The notes under the pieces are model-generated. The model saw nothing but the letters and a program-made list of their open reading frames with translations. It did not search any database and was not told the origin of the DNA. Source: an uncultured Clostridia bacterium (GTDB lineage: Bacteria > Bacillota > Clostridia > UMGS1883). From it: 64,000 bases of DNA. The translations under genes and the position numbers were made by a program. Of this stretch, positions 4,263 through 55,365 are shown in pieces. The number at the start of each line of letters is the position of its first letter. The first letter of the stretch is position 1. The DNA lies in the NCBI GenBank assembly GCA_947626145.1, contig CANQRB010000004.1:29250-93249 (forward strand), given 5' to 3'.

Positions 4263-4532
4263 TGGCTCGGGCCGCCCTGTGGTCGAGGCAGGGCGGCCTT
4301 GTGCCTGTAATTTAAGGAAGAATTATAACCACGCTTTCTTTCAGCTCGGTTTTCCGGGCGGCAGCTTCCTCGCGCGCGCCGCCTTTTTTCTGTCCGGCTC
4401 CGCTGCAGACGGGCGGATCAGGGATGGCCTCGCCTTTGGAAAGCGGCGGTTAACTTGGGTCGGGGTGGCCGGTCTGTTGCGGCCACGGTGTGAGTGGAAT
4501 CAGTTTGCAAAAATCTGTTAACACAAAATAGT

Positions 4533-4706
4533 TTATTGTTTCTGCTTCCAAACCTTATAATCGTCAACAACAGATTTTGTATCTGTGATAACTTTTGCCC
4601 CGGTTATGCCTAAACTGGTCGCTTGGAACAGAACCCCGTCCATAACGGCCTTATCGGGAGACAGGTCTTTAATATCTATTGCGGGATTTTCAAATGCTTT
4701 TCTCAT
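4533..4706 (-). CDS. Small hypothetical protein (57 aa) directly downstream of the large surface-protein gene
   Basis: Not in the ORF track (<60 aa). ATG at 4706..4704 is preceded by GGAGG with a 9-nt spacer. Translation: MRKAFENPAIDIKDLSPDKAVMDGVLFQATSLGITGAKVITDTKSVVDDYKVWKQKQ. It begins 15 nt after the stop of the 1034-aa gene. Confidence 0.4.
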   Translation of the reverse strand: MRKAFENPAIDIKDLSPDKAVMDGVLFQATSLGITGAKVITDTKSVVDDYKVWKQKQ

Positions 4707-4720
4707 TTTAATCTACCTCC

Positions 4721-7700
4721 TTACAGCTCGGGAATGAAGTCGACTTCCGCACCAGCGGAATCAGCTTCGGTCTCGGCGATTTCGGTACTTACAAACTCAA
4801 TCTCAACACTGTCTAGGCTGAAGATCATAGCACCATCAACGCCTTCACAAGTAACATCATTGCCATTGATAGTTATCTTATAGAACAAGCCCTCAGTTTG
4901 AGTTGCTGTTTTATCTGTGCCGTTTACATCAACAATGGTAGATACCTTGAAGCCTATACCATTATCGTAAAGGGCTTTATCCAGTTCTATCGTTGTTCCT
5001 GCTTCACTGCTTGTAACTTTAATGAATTCTTTACGAACATCGTTAATAGCGTTCTTGTCATCAAGAACAACACCGCCGGTGCTGAGAATAGCAATGGCCT
5101 GTTCAAGCTTTTTTGCATCAAATTTTTCACGATTCAAAGTATCTTTGTAGTCGCTAAGGTTGGTTTTGATATCGTTAGCAAGCAACTCATAAAGAGATGC
5201 TTCAGCTTGAGCGATGAGATAACCGCTATTTGTGTCAACAAGCCTTGCCATATAGTAAATATTGCTTCCATTGTCTTTTTTCGGAATAACAAGTACAGAC
5301 GGAGCCCCGTTACTGAGGACAGAAGTGTCTATAGTCGTATTGTCTACTCCTTTACCGCCTTTTTCATTTGTTGTTTCGTGAAGATCAATAGCTGTAACCT
5401 TTAGCGTCTGTCCATCATAAGCACCATCGGCAGTAAAAGTTATGCCCAAAGTATCCGCACTGTCTCCATCAGCAGCAAAGCCAAGTCCAGCGGTGAGTGT
5501 AGCCGTCGCAGGAACGTCCACGCCACCTGCATATACGGCAAACTTGCTGATCTCAAGGTCTCCTTCACTTGAGGGATTGTTTCCAAAGAAGGAAACACCG
5601 TCAATTCCTCCATTGTTACGGAATGGTATGCCCATCAACATTTTACCTTCACCGGATGATTCATTCCGCACGGAAAGATTATATGTGTTATTTGTAACAT
5701 CAACATCTACGATAAAAGCATATGACTGATTAAGCTCCATTGTCATAAATTCTTTCTTGGCGGCGTTGTCTCTGTAGTAAATTTTGTCGCCACCGATAGG
5801 CAAATGAATACGAAGATTTGTGCCATACGCATCTGTCCCTTTTGCGTCGTACTTAAAAAATCCGATAGCGTTGTCGCCGTTTTGTTTGGCAACAAGAGTA
5901 AATGCGACGGTAAATTTGTCTGATATTTCTTTAGGGAAACGATACATTTCACTAAATGTCCTACCCTGATTGTTGATTACTGAGTTAGAACCAACGGTCA
6001 TGCCGGCTGTAGGATCAAATGTCTTTTCATGAGTCACAACATTTGCCGTCAAGGTAAGGCCTGTATCGGCGATAGTGCCGGTAGTATCCTCCCATGTTAC
6101 GGGCAATTCCTCGGCTGTCACTGCATCACTGTCAACAGTGGTCTTAATTGCGGTGGGAAGAACATAGTTATATCCTTCGAGAGTATTAATGTCAATGCTG
6201 TCGGGGCCGGTGATGGTGGCAGTTAACTCGGCCTCAACCTCAATTTCCTTAGTAGTGGTTGCGATAATAGTATCCTGATCAGACGCCTTATTGGTATAAT
6301 ATTTATCTGCTATGCGACGATTAGTAATAATCTTGCCATCACTGGCGGCACGGCCTTGATCAACGACCTGGTTTTCTGCAACTTTTACCGTTTCGCCTAC
6401 CTTGCCGGTCTGTTTCTCGATAGTGGCTACAGTTTGACCCTTGTATTTGGCATTTATGACGTAATCCACATCGTCGTTTTCAAGATTGCTAAGTTTGGTT
6501 ATTTTGAAGTTGTCGATGATGGGCTGAGTATCGTTACCGACCCAAGCGGTCTTAAAGCCCAGTTTTGTCTGCTTGGAACCGGTCCATACAATAAACTGCT
6601 TCGTCTCAAATTGATTGAGAGTGTGCAGGGTCATCTGCTGAAGCTTTTGGCTGGTATTGTCATTTTTGTCGGCATACCAATCAGCGCAGGGGTCGTCGGC
6701 CTCGCCGGTGCCATTGGCATCGGTTACGTAAAGCCACATATACTGATCCTTTGCCTGCTTGGTTGGCATGACGTCAAAGCTCACGAGATAACGGGTATTG
6801 GGGTCAACATTCCAAGTGCCGCCGAAAACAGTTCCGGCCGCACCGGCAACGCCCTTGAGCCAAAGAGCCTGGCTTCCTTCGGTCTTTTGGTTCTCACCCT
6901 TGACTATCTCATATTCTTCATTGGGTATATTAGTCCAACCATTAATACCATTTTCAAAGCCGTCGTTGGTGCCGGTAACAGTTCCCTCGACATTTTTTAC
7001 ATGTTTGGCGGTAATGTCGTAGTTGTTATTACCTTCACTCAAAGTGATCTCTTTGATTTCGGGGAGAGCAAGTTCATAAAGCTTTTCATTTTTAACAAGG
7101 TACTTGTTGCAACTGTTGAGAGAAAACTTATCTCCGGCAAAGTATTCCTTTTTATTTCCGTTTGGATTAGACTCCTCCAAAACATTTCCGCCGTCCATTA
7201 TGCGAACATTGACAGCAGCGTCGGGAGACAAAACCTTAACATCAGCAAGGTAAGCATCCTTAAGAGAAGCTACACCCCCAGTGGCATCTCCGCCGTGGAT
7301 ATTGGAGAGCAGAAAAGCGACCTTACCACCAACTATCTTATCGGCAGGAATACGGAGCTGAGACGTCACCTCAGTCCATGAATTAGATACATTTGATGTA
7401 CTCAGTGTTCCGACAAGAACTCTGCCCTCAACAGCAGTATCGAGCAGAGCGTTGTTCTCAGCTTCAACAGCTGCAGGGTCAACAGCAAAAATGGCAGCTT
7501 TAGATATACGGTCGTTAGCACCATTGTTAGACCATGCCTGAACCTTAAAGGTAGCCCGAAGAATTTGACCGGCAGCAACATTAGTGTCTTCTGGCAGTGT
7601 GAATTCAGCAAAACCCGCACGGTTATTTGAGAAAGACACTATGGCAGACTGAGCGTCTTGAACTTTGTATTCGTCAAATGTTTGCGGACGCTTAGCATCG

Positions 7701-7825
7701 GAATTAAAATTCCAACCATAAAGCTTATCTGCGGCGATATCTCCATCAGCCGCAAAAGCTACGGGCACTACTGTCAATACCATGGCCAAAACCACAGCCA
7801 ATGACAGAACTTTTTTGATTCTCAT
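4721..7825 (-). CDS. Large secreted multidomain protein (1034 aa) with CBM4/9-like and Ig-like modules; function unknown
   Basis: Signal peptide MRIKKVLSLAVVLAMVLTVVPVAFAADG. GGAGG RBS 8 nt upstream of the ATG. Internal stretch GFENGINGWTN...ALWLKG...RYLVSFDV looks like CBM_4_9, with beta-rich repeats elsewhere. Acidic C-terminus, no LPXTG or SLH motif. Lower GC than flanking DNA. Confidence 0.8.
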   Translation of the reverse strand: MRIKKVLSLAVVLAMVLTVVPVAFAADGDIAADKLYGWNFNSDAKRPQTFDEYKVQDAQSAIVSFSNNRAGFAEFTLPEDTNVAAGQILRATFKVQAWSNNGANDRISKAAIFAVDPAAVEAENNALLDTAVEGRVLVGTLSTSNVSNSWTEVTSQLRIPADKIVGGKVAFLLSNIHGGDATGGVASLKDAYLADVKVLSPDAAVNVRIMDGGNVLEESNPNGNKKEYFAGDKFSLNSCNKYLVKNEKLYELALPEIKEITLSEGNNNYDITAKHVKNVEGTVTGTNDGFENGINGWTNIPNEEYEIVKGENQKTEGSQALWLKGVAGAAGTVFGGTWNVDPNTRYLVSFDVMPTKQAKDQYMWLYVTDANGTGEADDPCADWYADKNDNTSQKLQQMTLHTLNQFETKQFIVWTGSKQTKLGFKTAWVGNDTQPIIDNFKITKLSNLENDDVDYVINAKYKGQTVATIEKQTGKVGETVKVAENQVVDQGRAASDGKIITNRRIADKYYTNKASDQDTIIATTTKEIEVEAELTATITGPDSIDINTLEGYNYVLPTAIKTTVDSDAVTAEELPVTWEDTTGTIADTGLTLTANVVTHEKTFDPTAGMTVGSNSVINNQGRTFSEMYRFPKEISDKFTVAFTLVAKQNGDNAIGFFKYDAKGTDAYGTNLRIHLPIGGDKIYYRDNAAKKEFMTMELNQSYAFIVDVDVTNNTYNLSVRNESSGEGKMLMGIPFRNNGGIDGVSFFGNNPSSEGDLEISKFAVYAGGVDVPATATLTAGLGFAADGDSADTLGITFTADGAYDGQTLKVTAIDLHETTNEKGGKGVDNTTIDTSVLSNGAPSVLVIPKKDNGSNIYYMARLVDTNSGYLIAQAEASLYELLANDIKTNLSDYKDTLNREKFDAKKLEQAIAILSTGGVVLDDKNAINDVRKEFIKVTSSEAGTTIELDKALYDNGIGFKVSTIVDVNGTDKTATQTEGLFYKITINGNDVTCEGVDGAMIFSLDSVEIEFVSTEIAETEADSAGAEVDFIPEL

Positions 7826-7879
7826 TTTTGTTACCTCCTTAAAATTTTGCTAAAAAATAAATCCTCGATTTCATGCGCA

Positions 7880-7905
7880 CTTCCTATAAGAAATGCTATC
7901 GGAAG
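7880..7905. promoter_or_regulatory. 26-nt hairpin/palindrome in the 5' UTR of the large surface-protein gene (copy 1)
   Basis: cttcctataagaaatgctatcggaag is the near-reverse complement of the perfect palindrome at 8188-8213. It lies 55-80 nt upstream of the ATG at 7825. Confidence 0.45.
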
Positions 7906-8022
7906 TAAATTTATGCCGTTTTACGGCAATATTTACAACATAAAAATGAAAATTAGAAATTATTTGTTGAAATTGCACAATTACTCACAACAATTTTGTA
8001 CATTATGGATAAGGGAAAGATA

Positions 8023-8052
8023 TTGACTTTTTTATGGCAAAAGTAGTATAAT
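8023..8052 (+). promoter_or_regulatory. Near-consensus sigma-A promoter (TTGACT-18-TATAAT) with no adjacent coding gene
   Basis: -35 TTGACT at 8023-8028 and -10 TATAAT at 8047-8052. The next convincing plus-strand CDS starts 420 nt away. Confidence 0.5.
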
Positions 8053-8059
8053 TAGATTA

Positions 8060-8283
8060 TAAAATTTCATGTGCCGATCATAGGAAAGCCTCGGAAAAAG
8101 GCCGTGTTAAGCCGGATTTGCCCGGTTGACGGCGCAGAGGTCGACTGCAAAGCCAGCCTTGGAGCGATGAATGGCCGCTCGGTTTTACTTCCGATAGCAT
8201 TTCTTATCGGAAGTTCGATGAAATCATACAAAAAAGCACCTGTGACAAGCTCTTTATCGTGAGCTTGCCGCAGGTGTTTTTTT
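8060..8283 (+). ncRNA. Candidate ~220-nt structured transcript (sRNA or cis-regulatory leader) between the orphan promoter and a strong terminator
   Basis: Several internal stems, including the perfect palindrome cttccgatagcatttcttatcggaag (8188-8213). It ends in a 16-bp hairpin + T7 at 8237-8283. The only ORF (8071-8262) has no RBS and a non-protein-like composition. Confidence 0.3.
8237..8283 (+). terminator. Strong Rho-independent terminator
   Basis: cacctgtgacaagctc-tttatcgt-gagcttgccgcaggtg followed by ttttttt. Confidence 0.7.
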
Positions 8284-8318
8284 AATGTGATGCCGTTATT
8301 TTCGATATAACGCAAAAA

Positions 8319-8343
8319 GCAGCCGATTTCGGCCGCTTTTTTT
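8319..8343 (+). terminator. Second tandem terminator
   Basis: gcagccga-ttt-cggccgc followed by ttttttt. Confidence 0.55.
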
Positions 8344-8425
8344 ATTATACGCCTACGTCGCAATCCGTTCTTTGGTATCATAGTTGTATAGGCTTGTATT
8401 TCGCATAAAAAATTTAAAATTTTCC

Positions 8426-8454
8426 TGCAACTTTTCGATCCTTTGCAACGAATA
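8426..8454 (+). promoter_or_regulatory. Putative ECF-type (autoregulated) promoter for the sigma operon
   Basis: TGCAAC-N17-CGAATA, with the AAC -35 core and CGA -10 core typical of ECF sigma promoters. It sits ~20 nt upstream of the TTG start. A second GCAAC direct repeat follows. Confidence 0.35.
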
Positions 8455-8471
8455 TATTAAGTGGAAGGAGG

Positions 8472-9041
8472 TTGAGCGGATTGGCGGCGGAGCACGAGGA
8501 ACTTAAATGGATAAGGAAAATCAAGCTGTTCGGTTCAAAAAAAGACGCCGACAGTCTGGTTCGGTCTTATTACGATGAGATTTACAGATATGTATCCCGA
8601 CAGCTTCCCGACAGCGGGGACGCCTGGGATCTTACTCAGGAAATCTTTATATCCATGCTGCGCTCCATAAAGTCGTACAAAAAAGAACGGTCGTCCTTCC
8701 GCACATGGCTGTACCGCATCGCCACAAACAAAATTATAGACTGCCGCCGGAAAAAGGTTCCGACGACTGCCGCGCCCGACGAAGTCAATACAGCCGACGA
8801 TGCCGATTTTATAAGTCAAATCGCCCAGGCCGAGCTGCTGAAAAAAATCGAGGGCTATGTCAACCGCTTTTCGCCCGCCGTGCAGCAGATATACAGACTG
8901 CACATTTACGGGGATTTTACCTTCGCAAGCATCGCTTCAGCCCTGGACATCCCTGAGGCCACCGTAAAATCCCACTATTACAGATTGCAGAAAAAAATAA
9001 GAGAGGAGTTTGGCGATGAGTACAGAGACGTTGTCGAATGA
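8472..9041 (+). CDS. ECF-family RNA polymerase sigma factor (sigma-70 region 2/4)
   Basis: TTG start with GGAAGGAGG RBS. Region 2 DLTQEIFISMLRSIKSYK..FRTWLYRIATNKIID and region 4 HTH EATVKSHYYRLQKKIREEF. 189 aa. Confidence 0.85.
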   Translation: MSGLAAEHEELKWIRKIKLFGSKKDADSLVRSYYDEIYRYVSRQLPDSGDAWDLTQEIFISMLRSIKSYKKERSSFRTWLYRIATNKIIDCRRKKVPTTAAPDEVNTADDADFISQIAQAELLKKIEGYVNRFSPAVQQIYRLHIYGDFTFASIASALDIPEATVKSHYYRLQKKIREEFGDEYRDVVE

Positions 9042-9759
9042 CGAAAAGGATATTGCCATAAAAAAAATTTTGGACGCGGGCGTCGTTACCCCTTGGGACA
9101 GGGTGAAAAAAAACTTGCTGGCGCTCCGTTTCTGCGCGCCGAAGCACATATTTTTCGACATGGGCGACTGCCTGTTTTTGGGACTGCTGGCGGCAGCGGC
9201 AGGTTGGATATTGCTTTTGAATATAAACGGCGGCTTTGTCTGCTGTTCCCTGCTGCTCGCCTCCCCTTTTGCATATATGATAACCTGCCTTCTGACGGCG
9301 TGGAAGGAGCGTCAACGGCGGATGTATGAAATAAAAATGACCTGCTATTTTAATCTGCATCAGGTGACGGCCCTCCGGATGCTGTATTTCAGCGGCCTTA
9401 ATTTAATTGTAAATTTTGTCATGATTCTGCTCGAACGCCGAATTTCTATTTTGGGAGCTTTGTTCTGGCGGCTTTTGGGCATTTCCTTTTCCGGCATATT
9501 TATTTACGGAGTTTTGCTAATAGCTTTCCAAATAAAAGTCCATGGCAGAATGTCCGTTATCTTACCGCCTGTTTTTTGGCTGATGATAAACAGCGTGATA
9601 TTCATTGTATGGAACGAAAGAATAGAATTTATAATATTAAATTTATCCGTTTATATAGTATATCTTGTGACGGCGGGACTGCTCATGCTGTATATTGCGA
9701 TGCTATACACCTATATGACGAATTGGAGAGGAGAAACAGACTATGCTTTCAGTGAATAA
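9016..9759 (+). CDS. Polytopic membrane protein co-transcribed with the ECF sigma (candidate anti-sigma/sensor)
   Basis: ATG at 9016 with GAGAGGAG RBS (the track start 9010 is TTG). ~70-aa soluble N-terminus followed by ~6 TM helices. Overlaps the sigma gene's 3' end. Confidence 0.6.
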   Translation: MSTETLSNDEKDIAIKKILDAGVVTPWDRVKKNLLALRFCAPKHIFFDMGDCLFLGLLAAAAGWILLLNINGGFVCCSLLLASPFAYMITCLLTAWKERQRRMYEIKMTCYFNLHQVTALRMLYFSGLNLIVNFVMILLERRISILGALFWRLLGISFSGIFIYGVLLIAFQIKVHGRMSVILPPVFWLMINSVIFIVWNERIEFIILNLSVYIVYLVTAGLLMLYIAMLYTYMTNWRGETDYAFSE

Positions 9760-10600
9760 CGTCACAAAAAAATACGGTGATTTCACTGCGCTTCAAGACA
9801 TAAACATTGAGTTTGACCGAGGAGTTTACGGACTGCTGGCGCCCAACGGAGCCGGAAAAACCACTCTGATGAAAATGCTGGCCACCCTTTCCTTCCCAAC
9901 AAAGGGGGAGATTTTGTGGAACGGCACGGATATATTTCAACTGGACGAGGAATACCGTGATATTCTGGGCTTTTTGCCGCAGAAGTTCGGCTATTACAGG
10001 AATTATTCCCCGCGCAGGTTCTTGGGCTACATGGCGGCGTTAAAAGGCATAGAAAAAAACGGGGCGGAGGAAAAAATCGACTCACTTCTTAAAAAGGTCT
10101 TTCTCGAAGAATTTGCGGATAAAAAAATGAAGCAGTTTTCAGGGGGTATGCTCCAACGGGTAGGCATCGCTCAGGCTCTGCTCAACGACCCCGAGCTGCT
10201 TATTCTGGACGAGCCCACCGCCGGACTTGACCCAAAGGAGCGGGTTCGCTTTCGCTCCATGCTCCACTCTTTGGCCGGTGAACGCATAGTTATTCTGTCA
10301 ACTCATATCGTTTCCGACATTGAAACAATAGCTGATAAAATAATTTTGCTTAAGGATCATAAACTGCTTTGCTGTGCCGCGCCCACAAGGCTGTGCTCCG
10401 CGTTGCAGGGCAAAATTTTTGAGATACCCGCCGACAGGCATATTGACGCGCCCTGTGAAATTCTGTATGAGCGCCAGACCGGAACAGGGACCGTCCTGCG
10501 TATTTACAGCGAGTCACGCCCTGACGGAGCAACGGAAACGGCCGCGAACCTTGAGGACGTGTTCCTGACGGTTTACCGTGACGAAAGGAGACAAAAATGA
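9743..10600 (+). CDS. ABC transporter ATP-binding protein
   Basis: Walker A LLAPNGAGKTT, ABC signature FSGGMLQRVGIAQAL, Walker B LLILDEPTAGLD. GGAGAGGAG RBS. Confidence 0.9.
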   Translation: MLSVNNVTKKYGDFTALQDINIEFDRGVYGLLAPNGAGKTTLMKMLATLSFPTKGEILWNGTDIFQLDEEYRDILGFLPQKFGYYRNYSPRRFLGYMAALKGIEKNGAEEKIDSLLKKVFLEEFADKKMKQFSGGMLQRVGIAQALLNDPELLILDEPTAGLDPKERVRFRSMLHSLAGERIVILSTHIVSDIETIADKIILLKDHKLLCCAAPTRLCSALQGKIFEIPADRHIDAPCEILYERQTGTGTVLRIYSESRPDGATETAANLEDVFLTVYRDERRQK

Positions 10601-11751
10601 AACTGATAAAATCGGAAATTAAGAAGCTTGTATTTAACAAAAGCCTGTATTTTTTTCTGGCCATTTGCCTGACGTTAAATCTTGCGCTGATCGCTGTGAC
10701 GGGCGGCGAACGTTCTTATATAAAATATATTGGAGAAATCACGGCGAACGCCGGAGACAGGATCAACCGTTCTTTTCTTAATTATGTCAGCGCTTTGCCG
10801 GACAGCGAGTTCATCGACCGCCTCACAGCCGCCTGTGCCGGTGCGGGAAAAATCTTCGACAGCTTTGACGCGGCGGCATTGGGCAGAAACTGGTATTATG
10901 ATGAATACTATATAAAGTCCTCTTTCCTTCATAGAATGTTATATGAGAAATACGAAAAATTAAACAATTCAGTGAAATTGCTGAATTCCGAAAACGCCGA
11001 TCTGTCCGTTTACGGGGCCGACGCCACGGGGAATTTCCATGAGGCTCTGTTTACATATACACTCAAAGCGCTGATGATAGAGGGATTTATACTTATTTCT
11101 CTCCTTACGATCCACATAATGGGCATTGAACGTCAAAGCCTTACCGAGTCCATAATATATTCCAGCCGAAGAGGTCGGGCCCTTGTCAAAGACAAAATGT
11201 GCGCCGCCTGGATAGTGAATACCGGCTGCATCTTGCTGCTGTACGGGTCAACGCTGGCGTTTTTCTTTTCGGTATGGGATATCGGCGGCCTTTGGGAAGC
11301 CAACGTGTCAAGCTGCTTCCACCTTGTGACGGACGTTGATCTGCCGTTTCTGAAGCCTTTCCTCACTTGGACAAGCTTCACGGTAAGAGAGTATTTCACC
11401 GCGACTCTGCTTTTGGAAGCCGCATTGCTGTTGGTGTGGCAGCTCATATCCTCCTGCATCGGAATTTTGTGCGGCAGTTCCGCCAAAGGATTTCTGACGG
11501 CGGCGGCCTGCCTTACGGGTCCGTATTTTCTGCCGTTTGTTTTTAAATCGCTGAGCTGTGGGTGGTCATTTTATATTAACACCTTTTCCATCTCAATGTT
11601 AACGCTTAATCAGCATTTGTGGTTTACGGACATGGGTGTTTACGAGCTGCTGCCGTGGCAGGAAACCTTGTCGGCCGGAATACATTTATCCGTGTGTGTT
11701 CCGCTCTTTTTTACGGCAATTAAAATATTCAAAAGAAGGGAGCTGATGTAA
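10597..11751 (+). CDS. Polytopic membrane protein (ABC-2-type permease-like), function unknown
   Basis: 384 aa with multiple TM segments. Its start overlaps the ATPase stop (ATGA). Confidence 0.6.
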   Translation: MKLIKSEIKKLVFNKSLYFFLAICLTLNLALIAVTGGERSYIKYIGEITANAGDRINRSFLNYVSALPDSEFIDRLTAACAGAGKIFDSFDAAALGRNWYYDEYYIKSSFLHRMLYEKYEKLNNSVKLLNSENADLSVYGADATGNFHEALFTYTLKALMIEGFILISLLTIHIMGIERQSLTESIIYSSRRGRALVKDKMCAAWIVNTGCILLLYGSTLAFFFSVWDIGGLWEANVSSCFHLVTDVDLPFLKPFLTWTSFTVREYFTATLLLEAALLLVWQLISSCIGILCGSSAKGFLTAAACLTGPYFLPFVFKSLSCGWSFYINTFSISMLTLNQHLWFTDMGVYELLPWQETLSAGIHLSVCVPLFFTAIKIFKRRELM

Positions 11752-12933
11752 ATGTTTGTCTGGGAGCTCAGAAAAGTTTGGACAAAGGAGCATATCTTAC
11801 TCATCGCCGCGGTCACGCTTCTTTTTTCTCTGACCTTTCTTGTACCGCCAATAAGGTCGGTGACTGTGACAGAAGAGGGCGAGGAAATCTTCTCCGCGAG
11901 GATGGGGATAATCAAGGAGTGGCTCAATAAATATGACACACAAATTACGCCTCAGGAATTTGAAGAGATAAAAAGGATCTATGATGAACGCCTTTCCGAC
12001 GGACAGGCTGTCATTTCAACGCAGCCCTATTTCGCGGAGAATAATGTGTTTACTTATGACGACTATCTTTCTTACGGTAATAACGCCCTGAACGGCGCGG
12101 AAGGCTACTCCTACGACAGCTTCCGCAAAATGCGTGAGTTCATATCCGAAGGCACCGATTATTCCGCCATGTATTATCAGGAGTATGAAGATCTCATACA
12201 TAAATATGTTGACGGCAGCTCGCGAAAAGCTCGTTATATTGAAACGCTCCTGTCCGGCAAAGCCGAAAAGGCCGCAATATCCGAGCTCGACACGCTTCGC
12301 CGAACCAAAGGCGTCGGCAGTCTGCTGCCCGGCGAACTTGTGTACGCCGCAAACCGTTACTATGTCAACCTCTCAATTTTGCTCATTATATTGGCGATGT
12401 TCATTTCCGGGCCTGTCATGGTCAACGATAATGCCAATAACATTCGGCCGGGGCAATACAGCAGCAAAATCGGTCTCAAAATATATCAGCGTCAGTATGC
12501 GGCCATGGCGGTTTCTCTTTCCGCACTTACGGCACTCATGCTCATCGGCAGCTTGACGCTTTGGCTTGCAGTCGGGGCCGGCCGCTTTTTCCAATGCGGC
12601 ATCTTTGCTTTTCAAATGATGGAAACGCCGGTGACGGGCGATCTATCGTTTGGCGTGTATTTGGTTTTGATTTCGGCGCTGATTTTTATTCTTGTAAACG
12701 GTGTTGGCGGGCTTATGTTTTATCTTTCCGGCACGAGCCGCAATTTTATCGAGATGCTGATGAAATCGATACCCGCCGCGGTTTTTGGGATAATGCTGTC
12801 GCTTTCTTTAAATGACCTGTTTCTCAATACAAACTTTCTTTTCCGTATGACAGGGATAAGAGGTGTGGAGATTTTTCCGGTTATTTTGATTTTCATATTT
12901 GGATTATTGATAAATTTAAAAGGGATACGTTAG
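11752..12933 (+). CDS. Polytopic membrane protein with a large extracytoplasmic loop, function unknown
   Basis: 393 aa. N-terminal TM, a ~180-aa soluble loop, then 5-6 C-terminal TM helices. Starts 1 nt after the previous stop. Confidence 0.6.
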   Translation: MFVWELRKVWTKEHILLIAAVTLLFSLTFLVPPIRSVTVTEEGEEIFSARMGIIKEWLNKYDTQITPQEFEEIKRIYDERLSDGQAVISTQPYFAENNVFTYDDYLSYGNNALNGAEGYSYDSFRKMREFISEGTDYSAMYYQEYEDLIHKYVDGSSRKARYIETLLSGKAEKAAISELDTLRRTKGVGSLLPGELVYAANRYYVNLSILLIILAMFISGPVMVNDNANNIRPGQYSSKIGLKIYQRQYAAMAVSLSALTALMLIGSLTLWLAVGAGRFFQCGIFAFQMMETPVTGDLSFGVYLVLISALIFILVNGVGGLMFYLSGTSRNFIEMLMKSIPAAVFGIMLSLSLNDLFLNTNFLFRMTGIRGVEIFPVILIFIFGLLINLKGIR

Positions 12934-12995
12934 TAATGCGGTATGGAGAAGCTGTCTGTTGGGCTTGGCGAAGTTAGCATGGTATCACCTCAAAA

Positions 12996-13030
12996 CGAAA
13001 CGGACGCTCCGCTTGGAACGTCCGTTTGAT
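12996..13030. terminator. Bidirectional terminator between convergent operons
   Basis: aaacggacg-ctccgcttggaa-cgtccgttt, flanked by A/T runs on both sides. Confidence 0.55.
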
Positions 13031-13092
13031 TATCTTTTTACTCTACCATTTTAACACATATATAACTCTCATTCAATCACATTTACTCTCAT

Positions 13093-13404
13093 CTATTCTA
13101 ACTTTTTTTGATAATCGCTTTTAGCATAAACGACTCTCGTAACAGTTATCAGCTTCTCGCGCTCATCCACACGATAAAACATAATATAATTCTTAATCAG
13201 CAGTTTACGGTACTCATATTTTAAAGTTTGGAGTGGGCGATAAACAGGCATGGAATACGGAAAAACTCTGATTTTTTCCGCTTCGGTTATAAACTCCTCA
13301 GCTAACCGTCCGGCCGCAATGGGATTTGATAATGTTTTGCCGATATATGTCACAATGTTAATCATATCCTGTTGGGCGATAGGCTGAAACTCCAAATCAT
13401 ACAT
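13093..13404 (-). CDS. Type II toxin, RelE/ParE family
   Basis: ~103 aa. MYDLEFQPIAQQDMINIVTYI...YRKLLIKNYIMFYRVDEREKLITVTRVVYAKSDY matches the ParE/RelE fold pattern. Its start overlaps the antitoxin stop (ATGTATGA). Confidence 0.8.
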   Translation of the reverse strand: MYDLEFQPIAQQDMINIVTYIGKTLSNPIAAGRLAEEFITEAEKIRVFPYSMPVYRPLQTLKYEYRKLLIKNYIMFYRVDEREKLITVTRVVYAKSDYQKKLE

Positions 13405-13675
13405 TTTCGGTTTCTCCAATCGCCTCGCGCATATTTTTCAAGACTTCTTTTGGTGAAAACCGCTTGTTTGTCATTTCCGCCTCATACTCCGCCTCCTTAA
13501 GCTTAAAGTACACTTCGCTTTCAAACTGAAGATTTTCATAAGCTTCCATACTCATAACAACCATGTCGCCAAAACCGTTTTTTGTTAAGAAAACGGGCTG
13601 CTTTGTTTCGTGGACTGTCTTGGAAATATCCGCAAATTTATTTCTTAAGTCCGAAACGGGTCTTATTAAATTCAT
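13397..13675 (-). CDS. Type II antitoxin, Phd/YefM family
   Basis: Start at MNLIRPVSDLRNKFADISKTVHETKQPVFLTKNGFGDMVVMSMEAYENL, a classic Phd/YefM N-terminus. AGGAGG RBS 7 nt upstream. Confidence 0.8.
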   Translation of the reverse strand: MNLIRPVSDLRNKFADISKTVHETKQPVFLTKNGFGDMVVMSMEAYENLQFESEVYFKLKEAEYEAEMTNKRFSPKEVLKNMREAIGETENV

Positions 13676-13705
13676 AAAAATTCCTCCTATCATATTATGA
13701 TTGTA

Positions 13706-13727
13706 TTTTAGCACAATTATGCTAAAA
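13706..13727. promoter_or_regulatory. Perfect inverted repeat (candidate Phd/ParE operator)
   Basis: ttttagca-caatta-tgctaaaa, 30 nt upstream of the antitoxin start. TA promoters are typically autoregulated through such palindromes. Confidence 0.45.
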
Positions 13728-13778
13728 TTGCAAGAGGAAATTTTTATTTTTATAAAGTGATTTCCTTGCTAAAGCTAC

Positions 13779-13813
13779 AAAAAATGAGCTATGGAGGGTT
13801 GGCTCCATAGCTC
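13779..13813 (-). terminator. Rho-independent terminator of the M4 protease gene
   Basis: On the minus strand gagctatggag-ccaacc-ctccatagctc is followed by tttttt. Confidence 0.6.
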
Positions 13814-13927
13814 GATAACTTACGTAGTGCCTATATTGTACAGTCTTGCGCCTGACGCACCGCGGTCGCAAAGCTTCCTATTCGAGGGCAAATGACCTGA
13901 TAAGTGATAGCCTATTGCAAATCTAAA

Positions 13928-16900
13928 TTATAAGGCTATCATACCATCAGTTTCATCATTACCATTAAGTTCTTCGTCCTTTTTGCCTGTGTTTTTATTC
14001 TCAGATATATCTCCTTCGAAAGCTGTTTCGACGGACTCTTCATTTTTAAGTTCTTTGCCTCCAAACTCATTACTGATATCCTTTATTGGCACTTTGTCTG
14101 GCAAGGATTCAATAGAAACTAGTGACTCTTCATCATGATAATTTATTAATATGCCATTAGATATTTTGAATACAGGCCAAGAGTTTCCTGATTGGTTAGA
14201 AGAAACTTTGTACACCTCAACTAAGTTATTTCCATTATATAACTCTACCTGTGCACCCGAAGTCGCCCAAGTACCTTCACCGTAGAACCAGTATACATAA
14301 TATTCATATGTGCTATTTATGTCCACTTCAAATGTAACGGTTTCCGGCCCTTCTCCATCGGTATCATCCACATCCAAATTGGCCACCAAATCTCCTGATG
14401 CATTATATCCGTTTCTGTTAGAAAAATATACATGAAAGTTTCTATGGTCTGAAAGGCTTCCAACCAAATGAGAGTCTAAGTCGCTGGGATTCATGTTCCA
14501 ACGAAGAACTGCCCTATATTGATTGCTAGTCATCGAAGGAGAAATGCTTCCATTTTGATTGGCAACTTCTCTTCCCCCAATTATTGTGACGTTGAAATAT
14601 CCGGTGGTGTATCCGTACTTTTCCATTTCTATTGTATAATACCCAGAGGATGCAGTTAGTGAATATTCACCACTACCGTTAGTTATTGTTGAAGATATTT
14701 CCTCACCTTTACTACTATTCCACCCGTTTCTCAACCTGACTATTACGCCATCAATAGGATATCCGGTTGTTGCGCTTGTAATAACGCCGCTTATTTTTCC
14801 TTCACCAGACTTTACAAGTTTAACAAGTTCTTCTGTTTGGTTGTCTTTTGTTACTGTCGCAAGCCCGTAGAAAGGCATATAACCGTCTTTTTCAATAACA
14901 ACAGAATATGTTCCCACATCAAGAGACAGTTCTTTTGCTCCCTCTGCGCCTATTTGAACTTTCCCAATCAAGAAATCATCATCAAGTATAGATATAGTTG
15001 CATCTTTTATAAATGTTTCATCTTCCGCATCAACAATTTGTATATAAAGAGTACCTCTATCCCCATATATACCAACATCATCAAATGCACGTTTTATAGT
15101 CATTTTTTCCGCTTTAGACAATCCCTGAGTATCAGCTTGAAGCAGTACATTTCTCCTTACGGTTTTAAAGTTAGAATTTGCACTGAAGCCCTTGCCCAAC
15201 GAACCATACCATAGGTCTATAAGCTTAGACATTGAAATGGCCGGAAGACTATAAGAGGGATAGCCTTGTGACATTAAATATGCAGCATGAGAAATTACTG
15301 ATGAATTCGTGTGAGCAAATACTGATTTATTACCAGTATTAGTGCACCAATTAGTTCCACCAACTTTACTGGGCTTATGGCAGGAAGATGGATCCTTAAC
15401 ATTTCTTAATGGTCGCCAGTCCTCCCCTATGGTATAGTTATTATCATCAACGAACCATCCAAAGATATCTGCGTATGCTTCGTTGATTGCATAAGATATA
15501 TGACCATTACTGTGATCGTGACTAAGTCCATTCCCTGTCTTAAACTGAACTACTCCATGAGTGTACTCATGAGCAATAATATCAAGTCCGCTGGCCGTAG
15601 TAGTTTGGAGATTACTGTCGTTATTACTATTATCATAAAAATAGAATTCTTTGTTGCCGCCTGTCCAACACGCATTACTACTGCCTCCAAATTTATGAAC
15701 AGTTACTTTAATAGGATATCCATTCCCGTCCACAGAGCGTCTGCCCAAAGTGTCCGCATACCAATTATATACATCTATCATATTGGTGTATGCAGAAATA
15801 GCCGTTTTATCTCGCCATACATTAAATTCACTGCCAACTCTACTATTAACAAGTCCCCCATCATACATTTTAATGTTTCTCTCTGAATCTTCCATATAGT
15901 AGAATAACCAATCCCATTGTTTAAATTGTACGGGGAATGACACTTCGGTATTTTTTTCATTTTCACCGCTACCAGTTACTCTTTTGTCGCCCCAGTCTAA
16001 AATATTGCTTCCAGAATAAATTACGGAACCAGTATATCCATTTATGATTACAGTTTCGTCAATATTGTCGCCAGACAAACAAATTACATATGCTACAACA
16101 GGACTTTGCTCATATTCATCAAGAGAATATATAACTACCTCTGTTGATACAACATCTACTGATTCTTGCGGGTACTGACTTTTAGCAATATTTATTGCTT
16201 CACTTTCTGATATCACGGGGTCGGTATTTACATCAACTAAGTTTGCAGATGCAACTACATCGGATGTTAATGAAGTAGATGTTCCATTATTATCTACAGA
16301 CACGGTTAAATTTCTATCATAAACGTCAAGCCCATTATATTGTTGACTAAAAGTATAATCAGTTCCGTATTTGCCAGAATTTGTCACAGATATATTTAAT
16401 TCTTTTATTGGATCGTTCATGCCAAGAATTGTTCGAACTCCGTATATTGCATAAAGAGCATCGTCTGGGGAGTTTATATCAATATCACTTATTTTACCAC
16501 TTATCGCTGTTACTTGGGATCCCTCTTCATTGTATTCTATATAAGTATCAAAATCTGCATCCTTATTCATTTGCTCTATATCGACAACTGAATTATTAGG
16601 AGACTCATTAATATTAAAGTTACTTTCTTTTATAACCGTAACTTCAAAAGATTTTGTTAAATTATAGTCTCCTTTCGATATGCTAGCGTTGAGTCTAACA
16701 TTTTTATTCTCATTTATCGGACGTGAGACGGAACCGCTTTCTGAAACTACATTAATATTGTTACTTTCCCATGATATATCTACTGTTTCAATCATTGTTG
16801 GTAAAATCAAATCATGAGTAACAGATTCTTTACAGTCACCTTTACTATATGTAATTTCAAGAGTATCATATGCATATTGAACTATCGCTTTATTAAATTC

Positions 16901-18244
16901 ATTCTCATCATATTCTACCCACCTTGCATACAAAGTTAATTTATTGTTAACGGCCAATTTAAAATCATAGATATTTTCGCAATCCCTATCAGTATACCAG
17001 CCACCAAACAAATAATCTTTACGTTCAGGGTCTTTGGGAATTGTAACATTATTTCCAGCTAAAATCTCTTGACTTTCAGGCGCATCCTCTGCCCCTTCAT
17101 AATTCAAATCAAAGGTGACAGTGTAAACGCCGTCCTCCTCAATTTCTTCTTCCCAACCAGCATACAGAGTCAAGCGCTCGGTAATTTCCGTGTTCTCAAA
17201 ATCAAACTCATAAACGCATTCCTCATCTGTGTACCAGCCCGTGAAGATATAGCCCTCTCTTTCGGGATCATCGGGACGCTCTGCATAATCGTTCTTCTTT
17301 ACTTTCTGGGTAGCCGGAGGATTTTTCGCTCCTGAATAATTCAGGTCAAATTTTACATTGTATCTCGTGGTGCCGCCGGAGCTTCCGCCACCACCGCCAC
17401 CACCGGTGGAACGACTTATCGTATATTCAACGCTCATCACATCGCTGACAAGAACATCATCTTTTACCGCGATTGCCTTCAGTGTCGCGGTAGACAGTAT
17501 ATTTATATTGCCACCTGTGTATTCCTCGCTGTCAACTGTGGGCTCTGTTCCATCGGTCGTATAGTAAATCTTAACGCCCTCGGTGTCGCTCTTAAGCGTT
17601 ACAAGCTGATTTACATAATATGTGCCCGCCTCAACGGACGCGACAGGGGCGGCTACCGTTGTGCGGAGACCGTTATAAACCATTACGGCAATGTCCCCAC
17701 GGGTAGAGGCTGATCCCTTTCTGCCCTTGAGGTTATCCGTTATACCGTTATCCTCAGCCGCTTTAATATAGCCGGCAGACCAATCATCAGGGTCGGATTC
17801 AACATCGTCGCCAAGACCGACGCCGCAAACCACCATCTTTATGGCCTCTTCATATTTGACGTCGTCATCCGGCATAAATCCGCCGCTACCGTTGCCGTTT
17901 ATTATCTCCTCTTTCGCGGCGACATTGATGTAGCCGCTGGCCCAGTGGTCGGCGGGAACATCGTCAAACTTTGTGGCGCCCTTGGAATTGCGGGCATCGT
18001 TCTCCTTGCCTATCATGCGGCATACTACCGCCGCCATTTCGGACCTTGTGATAGATTTATCCGCCCCAAATGTACCGTCGGCGTAGCCGGTGAAAATGTC
18101 GAGCTTTTCCAGAGCGAGAGCCGCCTCGGCGTAATACTCATTCCCCGTAACATCGGAAAAGACCGTGCCTGCGGCAAAAGCACCGATCGGCGCAAGCGAC
18201 AGTGTCATTGCCAAAACTAAAATGATGCTTAAAAATTTTTTCAC
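13928..18244 (-). CDS. SLH-domain cell-surface M4 (thermolysin-like) zinc metalloprotease, ~1438 aa
   Basis: Likely GTG start (MKKFLSIILVLAMTLSLAPIGAFA signal peptide) with a GGAGG RBS. Three SLH repeats sit at the N-terminus. A chitobiase/Fn3-like domain and a Gly/Ser linker follow, then two Listeria-Bacteroides (Flg_new) repeats (YIFTGWYTDEEC, YLFGGWYTDRDC) and a PepSY/FTP-like propeptide. The M4 catalytic core has HEYTH (HExxH) and the third zinc ligand in AINEAYADIFG. Carboxypeptidase-regulatory-like beta domains are at the C-terminus. Low GC. Confidence 0.85.
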   Translation of the reverse strand: MKKFLSIILVLAMTLSLAPIGAFAAGTVFSDVTGNEYYAEAALALEKLDIFTGYADGTFGADKSITRSEMAAVVCRMIGKENDARNSKGATKFDDVPADHWASGYINVAAKEEIINGNGSGGFMPDDDVKYEEAIKMVVCGVGLGDDVESDPDDWSAGYIKAAEDNGITDNLKGRKGSASTRGDIAVMVYNGLRTTVAAPVASVEAGTYYVNQLVTLKSDTEGVKIYYTTDGTEPTVDSEEYTGGNINILSTATLKAIAVKDDVLVSDVMSVEYTISRSTGGGGGGGSSGGTTRYNVKFDLNYSGAKNPPATQKVKKNDYAERPDDPEREGYIFTGWYTDEECVYEFDFENTEITERLTLYAGWEEEIEEDGVYTVTFDLNYEGAEDAPESQEILAGNNVTIPKDPERKDYLFGGWYTDRDCENIYDFKLAVNNKLTLYARWVEYDENEFNKAIVQYAYDTLEITYSKGDCKESVTHDLILPTMIETVDISWESNNINVVSESGSVSRPINENKNVRLNASISKGDYNLTKSFEVTVIKESNFNINESPNNSVVDIEQMNKDADFDTYIEYNEEGSQVTAISGKISDIDINSPDDALYAIYGVRTILGMNDPIKELNISVTNSGKYGTDYTFSQQYNGLDVYDRNLTVSVDNNGTSTSLTSDVVASANLVDVNTDPVISESEAINIAKSQYPQESVDVVSTEVVIYSLDEYEQSPVVAYVICLSGDNIDETVIINGYTGSVIYSGSNILDWGDKRVTGSGENEKNTEVSFPVQFKQWDWLFYYMEDSERNIKMYDGGLVNSRVGSEFNVWRDKTAISAYTNMIDVYNWYADTLGRRSVDGNGYPIKVTVHKFGGSSNACWTGGNKEFYFYDNSNNDSNLQTTTASGLDIIAHEYTHGVVQFKTGNGLSHDHSNGHISYAINEAYADIFGWFVDDNNYTIGEDWRPLRNVKDPSSCHKPSKVGGTNWCTNTGNKSVFAHTNSSVISHAAYLMSQGYPSYSLPAISMSKLIDLWYGSLGKGFSANSNFKTVRRNVLLQADTQGLSKAEKMTIKRAFDDVGIYGDRGTLYIQIVDAEDETFIKDATISILDDDFLIGKVQIGAEGAKELSLDVGTYSVVIEKDGYMPFYGLATVTKDNQTEELVKLVKSGEGKISGVITSATTGYPIDGVIVRLRNGWNSSKGEEISSTITNGSGEYSLTASSGYYTIEMEKYGYTTGYFNVTIIGGREVANQNGSISPSMTSNQYRAVLRWNMNPSDLDSHLVGSLSDHRNFHVYFSNRNGYNASGDLVANLDVDDTDGEGPETVTFEVDINSTYEYYVYWFYGEGTWATSGAQVELYNGNNLVEVYKVSSNQSGNSWPVFKISNGILINYHDEESLVSIESLPDKVPIKDISNEFGGKELKNEESVETAFEGDISENKNTGKKDEELNGNDETDGMIAL

Positions 18245-20366
18245 GATTGTAACCTCCAATTTTATTTATTCACTTTCTAATTGCAGGAAAACACCGCCAC
18301 TGTATGTCACGCCCCCTTTTGGGCGAATTTGTCCTCCGTACAATAAAAAATGCGCAGCTCATCGGAGCCGCGCACGAAAAATGCTTAGCTCCGAATTTAC
18401 TGCGACATAAATTAATATAACACAAAAGAAACGCATTTTTGGCACTCGCTCATTAAAAATGCAACCAGAGCGTTACAGGAGCAGCATTTTTACCAATGCT
18501 AATGTTGCTCCGGTTAGCACTTTTATACGTTAGAATGTTAAAACAATGATAGAAAATATAGGTACTCAAAAAAGAGCGCAAAAAGCGAACTTAATAAGCG
18601 TTTCTATATTAATCTATGTCGCAAATAAAGTATACCACACATTTTTCCGGTTGTAAAGTGTTTTTTTTTCGTAAATGAATAATTTTTTATAACATATTCG
18701 CCGCGAAACCCATCTAGGCGCTTATCTTGCTGCTGAACGGCTCCCCGACTGTTTTACAAAAGAGTCGAACATTGCACAAATTCGTTCTTCGTAGGAAGGA
18801 GCTGCCACAACATTTCCCTCCTTTTGCTAAAAATTGTTCTTGGTCGGTTTTCCCCCCCTTTGTAATACCGGAACAATTTAAGTTATACAAAATCGGAAAT
18901 TTTTTTAAATTATCTGAAAAAGTCAAAATAAAAAGGACAGATTAATATCTATCATTCTCAGTATTCAATTACATCGCCTTTAAAAATCCCCTCCGGCGCA
19001 TGAGGGGGTTTACGCCGGAGAAAATTTTATATATCAAAGAGGCCCGTGCCTCTTAATTTTTGCGGCCGGTTATGCCTGAGTCGCGGCGTCCGTCTTGACT
19101 CTGCGGAAGCGCACCAGACCCGTACGGTGAAGGGCAACCATTATTGCCGGGATAAGCACAAGTTGAAGTATTATTCCGGGGATGGCGTTAAGCACCGCAG
19201 TCTGCGCAGGACAAAAAACCTGAAAAGATGTCGATTTCGCCTGACTTTGTTGGTCTATGTTGCATGGCGATCCGCTTCTGTGCAAGCTCAAAGATTTCTT
19301 CGTCAATTAACGGCTCATGCGTATTAGGTAAGAAATAGCGTTGTTCTGCCTCTTTTTCGACTTATACGAAACCTTGTGTGTTTTCTCAGTGATGATATGC
19401 CCTAAATACTTTTACCGTGTCAGGATGTCAAACAGCGTTTTCTCCGGCCATGTGTAAGGAGCGATCAAGGCTTTCTGATGTCGCGCATTCCTCGTCCGCT
19501 CATAACGTAATGCACCGATTGTCAAAACCTTGTTGTCGTCAAGCCATCGCTGAATATCGCACATCTGAGTATCCTTCACATACATGACGAAAATCTGCTT
19601 GACTATGAGATGTATCCGTATGGATATTCCCCGTTGACGTGCTCGCCCTTTTGAGTCCGCGCCTGCTTTGCGGCTCGGTGGTTGTCGCTCGGCATATTCT
19701 CTCGGATATGTGTCATGGCACACCCGCCGTATGGCTCGGCGCAAAAGGGATGTGTCCTTTGTTGCTGTTATGATGCCTCGCTGTTATCTTGCGGGCAAAT
19801 TTGTCGAGGTTCGTACAGATGGGGAGTATCGGAAAGGGGGATTTATGCGCCGCTCCAGGTCGTCGGGTCAGTTCACCTGAAAAGTCAGAATTTTTGTAAT
19901 GAGCTTCGTTTCCAGTCTGCTGATCTTCGTCTACGCACAAATGAGGATTGCCATACTCGTCGTTTTCGATGTACACTGTATGATCCAGAATACCGAAAGC
20001 CCTGTCCTCTTTGAAATAACTGTCTCAGACTGAAAGCTGATTCATTACTTCAACAGGAAATTCGACAAAGAAAATCGCCTGCCTGCACATGGCAGGCGGG
20101 CGAAACGGAACTAACAGAAGTATTTACGTGATTTATGTGTTCATCTTCCTCGGCAGGGTATCCCGCTTGCTGGGTCAGACTTCTTTTGAGCGAAGAACCA
20201 TTGCCGGAATTTGTCGATATGGAATAGGCTTCATGGCGGCTACCTCCTGTTAGCCGCCATACCTGTTAGCCTGCAGTTTCTTCCCTTGTATCAAGAGAAA
20301 TGGCAGCCTATGAAAAACAAGCATATAACCAAGAGCAGCAGTATATAGGCTCTGCGTCTATGCGTC

Positions 20367-55209: not shown

Positions 55210-55253
55210 AGCTTTATCCCCTGAAATCAACAATCAATAATATTACATTTTCT

Positions 55254-55282
55254 ATTGTACAATAAAAAAGGAAATTTGTCAA
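55254..55282 (-). promoter_or_regulatory. Strong sigma-A promoter of the S8 protease gene (TTGACA-17-TGtTACAAT)
   Basis: Minus-sense TTGACAaatttccttttttatTGTACAAT, ~45 nt upstream of the ATG. Confidence 0.6.
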
Positions 55283-55365
55283 ATGAATTTTTTGTTATTT
55301 TTATTTTAAACTAATCCCAAATTAAAATCATAAATATGTGAGTTCATTATGGTAACAATGACAGA

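Follow-up and report, generated by a model that had tools for sequence, protein, structure and literature searches.

The window analysed here is a 64,000-nucleotide (nt) stretch of DNA from an uncultured Clostridia bacterium, and this work concerns the intergenic region at 7876-8350, which lies between a minus-strand gene for a secreted variable surface protein of 1034 amino acids (aa) and a plus-strand operon encoding an extracytoplasmic function (ECF) sigma factor. A promoter scan of positions 7000-9500 returned the plus-strand sequence TTGACT-18-TATAAT at 8023-8052 as the top promoter-like site, with 11 of the 12 consensus positions matched. The same scan found no site on the minus strand; as oriented in the window, the surface-protein gene has no detectable promoter, and the promoter next to it points the other way.

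The transcript predicted from 8023-8052 is ~230 nt long, structured, and runs into two terminators. The folding energy of 8058-8283 (226 nt) was -87 kcal/mol, as compared with -62.4 ± 4.3 kcal/mol for shuffled sequences (z = -5.8). A preliminary description of the region had proposed this promoter, a structured transcript with no convincing open reading frame (ORF) and two terminators, all of which held up on analysis. The terminator hairpins were refined to 8230-8284 and 8312-8350, each followed by a T7 run; both had been overlooked by a simple terminator scan because of one mismatch in each stem. The only ORF behind the promoter (63 aa, 8071-8262) lacks a Shine-Dalgarno sequence and a Pfam match, runs through one of the inverted repeats described below, has a start codon that is unconserved in paralogues, and is not on record as a called protein. 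It was therefore rejected as a small protein.

Paired sites and matched spacers

The orphan promoter sits between the two copies of a 34-nt inverted repeat. These occupy 7876-7909 and 8184-8217, are separated by 274 nt and are complementary at 32 of 34 positions. The preliminary description had noted a palindrome at 8188-8213 and, at 7880-7905, a near reverse complement of it. Both copies are present, and searching for this pattern gave exactly two matches in 64 kb, where none is expected by chance; the unit is better described as a 28-nt site at 8187-8214 that forms part of the longer repeat. Each site consists of a 10-nt arm, an asymmetric 8-nt spacer and a second 10-nt arm (10-8-10), and the two copies share the same orientation when each is read along its own transcript. 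A ubiquitous repeat of the repetitive extragenic palindromic (REP) type, named in the preliminary description as one of the outcomes that would speak against its proposal, does not agree with two copies in 64 kb and further copies that all lie upstream of genes of the surface-protein family.

Invertons are defined by inverted repeats of 10-40 nt around a short segment (PMC11892184), and the 34-nt repeat at 7876-8217 has this layout. The geometry is also that of a tyrosine-recombinase core site of the lox/FRT kind, in which two inverted binding arms enclose an asymmetric overlap of 6-8 bp that must be the same in both partners; here the spacer is the predicted overlap.

Comparison of the window with related loci (numbered L001 onwards; their proteins carry P numbers) showed that the arms are conserved, with the general form ACTTCCGATA-N8-9-TATNGGAAGT. 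The proximal and distal spacers are both GCATTTCT in the window and in L018, both GCATTCCT in L013 and both GTAATACT in L016, and the two spacers of L021 are ATATTCCCT, which is 9 nt long and gives a 29-nt site (10-9-10). The central 8-9 nt match within these five pairs and vary between loci, the window being identical to L018, and at least four substitutions recur in the partner site. At all four loci with a small segment between the sites, the outer arm next to the gene was degenerate (TATAG, TATAA or TATAT, as opposed to TATCG) and was never homogenised.

A pattern in which crossover regions match, inner arms can be exchanged and outer arms stay fixed is predicted by conservative site-specific recombination, which we infer here. 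Strand exchange across the spacer would create a heteroduplex, through which a change in one spacer would spread to the partner site, and the outer arms would stay put. Coupling between spacers fits strand exchange across the spacer and is not expected of a shared operator or of an RNA hairpin. General gene conversion is disfavoured, because the outer arm would have been repaired too.

The module at paralogous loci

The same module was found upstream of the genes for P0007 (L013, L014), P0006 (L016, L017) and P0010 (L018-L020), always in the same orientation as in the window. Its parts follow one another as terminator or terminators, site, reversed leader, reversed promoter, upstream element, site, ribosome-binding site (RBS) and ATG, the latter opening the MRIKK... 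signal peptide. The four loci are ~85% identical; the segment between the sites measures 278-280 bp and both promoter hexamers are invariant. Between loci, homology ends either together with the distal site, at its outer edge, or shortly after the terminators. Both terminators lie beyond the distal site and are conserved with the module, and there is no plus-strand gene for them to terminate. L016 and L018 retain terminator 1, with a C-G pair changed in a compensatory manner to U-A; given the A and T runs on its flanks, this terminator could act in both directions. At the position equivalent to terminator 2, L013 has a different terminator.

No ECF sigma operon was found beyond the terminators in L013, L016 and L018. 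The preliminary description had considered the transcript as a possible leader of that operon; this idea was dropped because the three paralogous modules occur without it, and the sigma gene has a promoter candidate of its own, an ECF-type TGCAAC-N17-CGAA at 8426-8452, just upstream of its start.

An ON arrangement was observed at locus L021 (GCA_947630975.1). Its gene B, encoding a 1247-aa protein, is preceded by the upstream element, a promoter (TTGCCA-17-TATATT), a leader that includes AGAGGUCGACUGC, a site, the RBS and the ATG, all in sense orientation. Gene A of the same locus (encoding P0009) is convergent, 11.45 kb away and behind an identical inverted site; its 5' untranslated region (UTR) and signal peptide are identical to those of gene B, and it has no promoter or leader. 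The inner edge of the site is the exact point from which the upstream regions of genes A and B are similar, and the same site appears to mediate a large, gene-swapping inversion here. When the window segment was flipped in silico, it became collinear with the region upstream of L021 gene B over the whole stretch between the TTGCACAA element and the start codon, and a 13-nt exact match between the two leaders was present in the flipped orientation only. The internal promoter of the window, as predicted by sequence, would face the adjacent gene once inverted. L021 also contains, at ~18835-18965 on the minus strand and just upstream of the gene B promoter region, an orphan consensus promoter (TTGACA-17-TATAAT) followed by ~100 nt and a strong terminator.

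Other members of the family have no sites. In the genes encoding P0002 (L003, L004), P0003 (L005), P0005 (L010) and P0004 (L015), the promoter is fixed, and at L004, L005, L010 and L015 a sigma-70 promoter, the upstream element and a GC-rich leader stand in sense orientation. The TTGCACAA ... TTTTGTAC element is recognisable upstream of these fixed promoters as well as of L021 gene B, and is possibly a regulator-binding site. The fixed leaders contain the motif (C)CGG-A(A)GGUCGA-CCG-(R)AA(C)-CCCGG. In total, the AGGUCGAC motif was found in sense orientation in the leaders of nine loci (the window, L004, L005, L010, L013, L015, L016, L018 and L021). Its hairpin keeps the loop A(A)GGUCGA, shows compensatory A-U to G-C changes of the stem between clades, and is followed by RAAA and a GC-rich outer helix; the alignment was read directly, since MAFFT misaligned the motif. 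We regard the AGGUCGA hairpin as a candidate for a new cis-regulatory RNA motif or, given that GGTCGACC is palindromic in the fixed-promoter loci, for a DNA operator. Because the plus-strand RNA of the window carries the leader hairpin of the family, the orphan transcript is a family 5' leader pointing the wrong way. A free-standing small RNA (sRNA), as suggested in the preliminary description, is not in agreement with this homology, which spans the transcribed 130 nt.

Probable promoter inversion and its alternatives

Collectively, the data presented make it very probable that 7876-8350 is an invertible promoter, or inverton, controlling the gene for the 1034-aa surface protein, and that the window captures it in the OFF state. 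In this state the promoter would fire rightward, and its transcript would cross the distal site and end at the two tandem terminators; the surface-protein gene would keep its RBS and be left without a detectable promoter. A recombinase encoded elsewhere would bind the arms, exchange strands in the spacer and flip the 280-bp segment. The resulting ON order would be promoter, leader, site, RBS and gene, so that the protein would be made and the ~130-nt leader would become the 5' UTR of its mRNA. The junctions predicted for the flipped window locus are GAATGGCCGCTCGGTTTTACTTCCGATAGCATTTCTTATAGGAAGTGCGCATGAAATCGAGG on the proximal side and TGATTTCATCGAACTTCCGATAAGAAATGCTATCGGAAGTAAATTTATGCCGTTTTACGGC on the distal side, for example ...GGCCGCTCGGTTTTACTTCCGATAGCATTTCTTATAGGAAGTGCGCATGAAATC.

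The recombinase is more likely, with moderate confidence, to belong to the tyrosine than to the serine class, because the spacer is asymmetric and 8-9 nt long and its central dinucleotide is unconserved between loci. A serine-invertase model (12-2-12) was judged less likely: the central dinucleotide is TT, TT or AT depending on the locus, and one site has an odd length of 29 nt. Since the arms are common to several loci, a single enzyme could act on all of them. Recombination between the site pairs of different loci would be prevented by the locus-specific spacers, and each cell would show a changing subset of a diverse surface-protein family. A more far-reaching proposal combines a single unlinked recombinase, lox-like sites before at least 10 giant surface-protein paralogues, orthogonal spacers, 280-bp flips together with an 11.4-kb gene swap, combinatorial antigenic variation and the AGGUCGA hairpin as a new cis-regulatory element; taken as a whole this is tentative, and we consider it rather unlikely that every part holds.

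Several observations weigh against an active switch. Inversion itself was unobserved: all 11 contigs that span small-switch junctions, from four loci and about ten samples, are in the OFF orientation, and the ON architecture was seen only at the large-inversion locus L021. No tyrosine or serine recombinase was detected by Pfam among the ~55 ORFs of the window, and the only recombinase near a paralogous locus, that of L018, could be the invertase or simply a prophage integrase. At L011, which carries another allele of the window's own locus, the proximal spacer is GTATTTCT and the distal one GCATTTCT, a mismatch of 1 nt; either position 2 lies outside the overlap region or this allele flips poorly. 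Likeness to the distant fixed leaders is limited to the short motif (z = 1.6-3 in pairwise local alignments), and the activities of promoter and terminators at the window locus are predictions from sequence.

Assemblies report the majority orientation only, and a minority ON population is compatible with contigs that are all OFF. An all-OFF consensus is what one would expect of many loci that are individually ON in only a minority of cells, and for some verified invertons the read counts lean almost universally towards one orientation (PMC11892184). The search for ON contigs went through neighbouring proteins, namely the sigma factor, the 1034-aa protein, P0006, P0007, P0009 and P0010, and each small switch that it turned up was OFF. 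Some contigs end near the switch, L008 at 8174, L009 and L012 at ~8255-8275 and L001 at 7993, in the coordinates of the window; three of the five independent sigma-gene contigs (L008, L009 and L012) break no more than 100 nt from the distal site or terminator 1. These breaks would agree with ambiguous assembly at the switch and were considered as a hint of mixed orientation, but this was rejected, as low coverage and strain mixtures explain them equally. Hypothetical ORFs spanning the junctions of the ON and OFF states were looked up by exact sequence; none is on record in either form, an outcome that favours neither state. The L018 recombinase is a 361-aa tyrosine recombinase (Phage_integrase and Phage_int_SAM_3; L018:16916-18001) located 7 kb downstream of the paralogous switch among phage-like genes; on the opposite side of the surface-protein gene, the contig carries genes for a phage portal and a KAP NTPase.

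The alternative that fares best is a fossil or phase-locked switch, which would have arisen by site-specific inversion and no longer flips. Its promoter would make a terminated non-coding transcript, and the surface gene would be silent or expressed in another way. The uniform orientation of the 11 contigs, the proximal outer arm that is degenerate everywhere, the allele with mismatched spacers and the lack of a recombinase nearby would all agree with it. However, sites, matched spacers, promoter hexamers and terminators are kept across four diverged loci, as are intact genes exceeding 1000 codons, and maintenance of the whole device at these loci implies continued selection. As set out above, the uniform orientation is expected of a working switch too. 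We consider a locked switch improbable.

Less probable again is an independent sRNA or cis-regulatory leader that has its hairpin in common with the neighbouring 5' UTR, a single RNA- or DNA-binding regulator controlling both transcripts with no rearrangement of the DNA. The transcript does have its own promoter and terminators and a significantly stable fold, the hairpin is the same in sequence and orientation in both transcripts, and the arrangement is kept at four loci. Against this, the spacer loop varies by locus yet matches within pairs, and identical non-palindromic loops cannot pair; the body of the RNA corresponds to the sense 5' leader of paralogous genes; the surface gene would be left promoterless; the homology breakpoint of L021 falls at the edge of the site; and the linkage to the ECF sigma operon is unconserved. 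Nor does it belong to an Rfam family: a permissive search of 7700-8600 (E-value up to 10), and searches of the whole window and eight related loci at gathering thresholds, returned noise and transfer RNAs only. This absence also speaks against a known RNA and, like the presence of two independent strong terminators, against the riboswitch-like leader that the preliminary description had envisaged. That description had further read the palindrome as linking the transcript and the 1034-aa gene to a common regulator. The link itself stands, and a protein probably binds both copies; a shared operator or hairpin fails because of the locus-specific paired spacers and the L021 homology edge at the site. 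Where an orphan promoter, a structured RNA and a terminator follow one another beside a gene that lacks a promoter, it is advisable to look for flanking inverted repeats before calling the unit an sRNA.

Finally, a non-autonomous element resembling a miniature inverted-repeat transposable element (MITE) would account for a ~340-bp unit bounded by terminal inverted repeats (34-46 nt) at several loci; it would have landed in front of the gene and carry its promoter by chance. We consider this scarcely credible. No target-site duplication is present, and the flanking sequences are either inverted themselves (ATGAAATC) or unrelated. Copies occur only before family genes, their homology extends to the RBS and the signal peptide, and what they carry is the promoter and leader of this gene family. 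The site is found twice in 64 kb, with chance matches only in collection scans (genome, metagenome and viral). In these scans, genome and metagenome contig collections searched with CCGATAGCATTTCTTATNGG (spacer fixed) gave one chance match each, L002 (a Fluviicola metagenome-assembled genome) and L006, and viral contigs searched with a degenerate site pattern gave two matches, which is about the chance number.

Should the switch flip, DNA inversion would let the organism vary a large family of surface proteins that differ greatly from one another. The natural spacer variants would then offer a ready test of how one recombinase with many targets avoids scrambling the chromosome.

The surface-protein family, its surroundings and known systems

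Features of the proposed switch and of the adjacent surface-protein gene. Positions are those of the window.
Feature	Position	Strand	Remarks
57-aa ORF	4533..4706	-	Directly downstream of the surface-protein gene; conserved
Gene for the 1034-aa secreted variable surface protein, putatively regulated	4721..7825	-	Signal peptide MRIKKVLSLAVVLAMVLTVVP; acidic C-terminal tail ...EFVSTEIAE...DFIPEL
Fixed part of the 5' UTR	7826..7878	-	RBS AAGGAGG at 7834-7840; outside the putative invertible segment; conserved in paralogous loci
Gene-proximal site	7879..7906	-	ACTTCCGATA-GCATTTCT-TATAGGAAGT, minus-strand reading; outer arm degenerate, TATAGG vs distal TATCGG
Putative invertible segment, 280 bp, OFF orientation	7907..8186		Between the inverted sites; 278-280 bp at four loci
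Conserved upstream element	7973..8002	+	TTGCACAA ... TTTTGTAC; kept in switch paralogues
Predicted sigma-70-type promoter	8023..8052	+	TTGACT-N18-TATAAT; directed away from the surface-protein gene; both hexamers invariant in L013, L016 and L018
Predicted leader RNA, ~130 nt	8055..8186	+	Hairpin GCAG-AGGUCGA-CUGC at 8134-8148
Distal site	8187..8214	+	ACTTCCGATA-GCATTTCT-TATCGGAAGT; perfect 10-nt arms
Predicted terminator 1	8230..8284	+	-32.6 kcal/mol fold, then T7; would end OFF-orientation transcription
Predicted terminator 2, putative second insulator	8312..8350	+	-13.7 kcal/mol fold, then T7; hairpin homologues in L016 and L018

The 1034-aa protein is rare and has only weak matches to carbohydrate-binding-like (CBM-like) families in Pfam. 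A profile built from its relatives brought the family to at least 12 members, either paralogues or alleles. These have in common a near-identical signal peptide, MRIKK[VI]LSLAVVLAMVLTVVP, and an acidic tail, ...IEFVET...DFIPEL; their middles are very different. The window's own locus encodes a 1188-aa allele in another strain (L011:504-4070), which is 25% identical in its middle part, and such low identity between alleles of one locus is a sign of strong pressure to diversify, of which phage and host immunity are possible sources. The 1188-aa and 1034-aa alleles were both found in one metagenome sample. P0011 is mosaic-like, with an N-terminal part that resembles P0010 and a C-terminal tail identical to that of the 1188-aa allele. 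This suggests an exchange of cassettes between paralogues on top of ON/OFF switching. Hypervariable secreted proteins are typical inverton cargo (PMC11892184, PMC2268961).

Every family gene examined is followed within ~15 nt by an ORF of 52-60 aa with the consensus MKK.F..P..E.K.L.....VM ... Y/W.K. Besides the 57-aa ORF of the window, homologues are located at L003:3449-3628, L005:3772-3951, L010:6347-6526, L013:3945-4115 and L015:7099-7278. These ORFs have no match in Pfam, and their product may be a partner, chaperone or anchor protein.

On the plus strand, the ECF sigma operon (8481-12933) comprises the sigma gene, a putative anti-sigma gene and genes for an ABC (ATP-binding cassette) transporter. 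The sigma gene starts at the TTG at 8481 (186 aa, the exact protein being on record), not with the longer ORF from 8472. The surroundings form a low-GC island at 4.5-19 kb (31-50% GC) within a chromosome of ~57% GC, which also contains a ParE/Phd toxin-antitoxin pair (13093-13714) and a 1443-aa M4 metallopeptidase with an SLH domain (13928-18259). Positions 4500-19000 look like a horizontally acquired or fast-evolving cell-surface region. Further away, 22-nt inverted repeats that contain TTGACAAATTTC and GAAATTTGTCAA (55186-55292, inner ends 63 nt apart) lie in the upstream region of a minus-strand subtilase gene (53731-55233) and may be an operator pair or another small switch.

Among recombination systems, loxP and FRT sites have inverted arms and an asymmetric 8-bp spacer that sets direction; the spacers of partner sites must match, inverted sites lead to inversion and spacer variants are incompatible. 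The likeness to Cre/loxP and Flp/FRT is one of geometry only, as the arms here are 10 rather than 13 nt long, one locus has a 9-nt spacer and no recombinase was identified. The fimS element of Escherichia coli, inverted by FimB and FimE, is a ~300-bp element carrying the promoter of a surface structure, with 9-bp repeats and adjacent recombinase genes at a single locus. It resembles the element described here as a promoter-bearing ON/OFF element, and asymmetry near its repeats biases the direction of switching; unlike fimS, the present system has 34-nt inverted repeats, several loci and no recombinase gene in the 64-kb window.

The Mpi recombinase of Bacteroides fragilis belongs to the serine class. 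As in B. fragilis and other gut invertons, many loci here have a common repeat consensus and most are OFF in the population consensus. Unlike the sites described here, the repeats of Mpi invertons have a different consensus and are not known to be internally palindromic with locus-specific spacers. Gut invertons generally comprise promoter segments of ~200-300 bp bounded by 10-40-nt inverted repeats, with surface genes as cargo (PMC11892184, PMC11602134).

The closest systems in logic are the variable-lipoprotein systems of mycoplasmas, followed by the RecV switches of Clostridioides difficile. In the flgB and cwpV switches of the latter, the invertible segment does not include the promoter, and control is exerted through Rho or through the formation of a terminator in the leader. 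The RecV switches (flgB, cwpV, cmrRST and pdcB) consist of several loci served by one unlinked tyrosine recombinase (PMC7446863, PMC8844915, PMC9286219), and point changes in their inverted repeats alter invertibility (PMC11463649). They are similar to the module described here in having short invertible segments upstream of surface and motility genes or in their leaders, and differ from it in that the promoter lies inside the segment here and the repeats are lox-like, palindromic and of unrelated sequence.

In the mpl family of Mycoplasma penetrans, each gene has one invertible promoter. In the vpma system of Mycoplasma agalactiae, the tyrosine recombinase Xer1 acts on sites in the 5' UTRs of variable lipoprotein genes that depend on a unique promoter (PMC2268961). 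The mycoplasma systems and the present one have in common a multigene family of variable surface proteins, sites between promoter and start codon, and the joining of a promoter to a silent gene. L021, with one promoter and two genes behind inverted sites, mirrors vpma, and the one switch per gene seen in the window mirrors mpl. Unlike the mycoplasma systems, that described here is found in a Gram-positive-type organism of ~57% GC, concerns proteins of 1000-1500 aa, and has an unrelated site sequence, no adjacent recombinase, locus-specific spacers and dedicated OFF-side terminators.

A literature search for the site sequence gave unrelated primer matches only, and nothing in two supplementary files of PMC11892184. 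The inverton mechanism is familiar; no description of the site sequence, the protein family, the built-in terminators or the locus-specific spacers was found in the literature searched, and we regard this as a previously undescribed family. If it flips, it would add a defined site family, with a 10-8-10 core, locus-specific spacers and built-in terminators, to the few invertons characterised in Gram-positive anaerobes.

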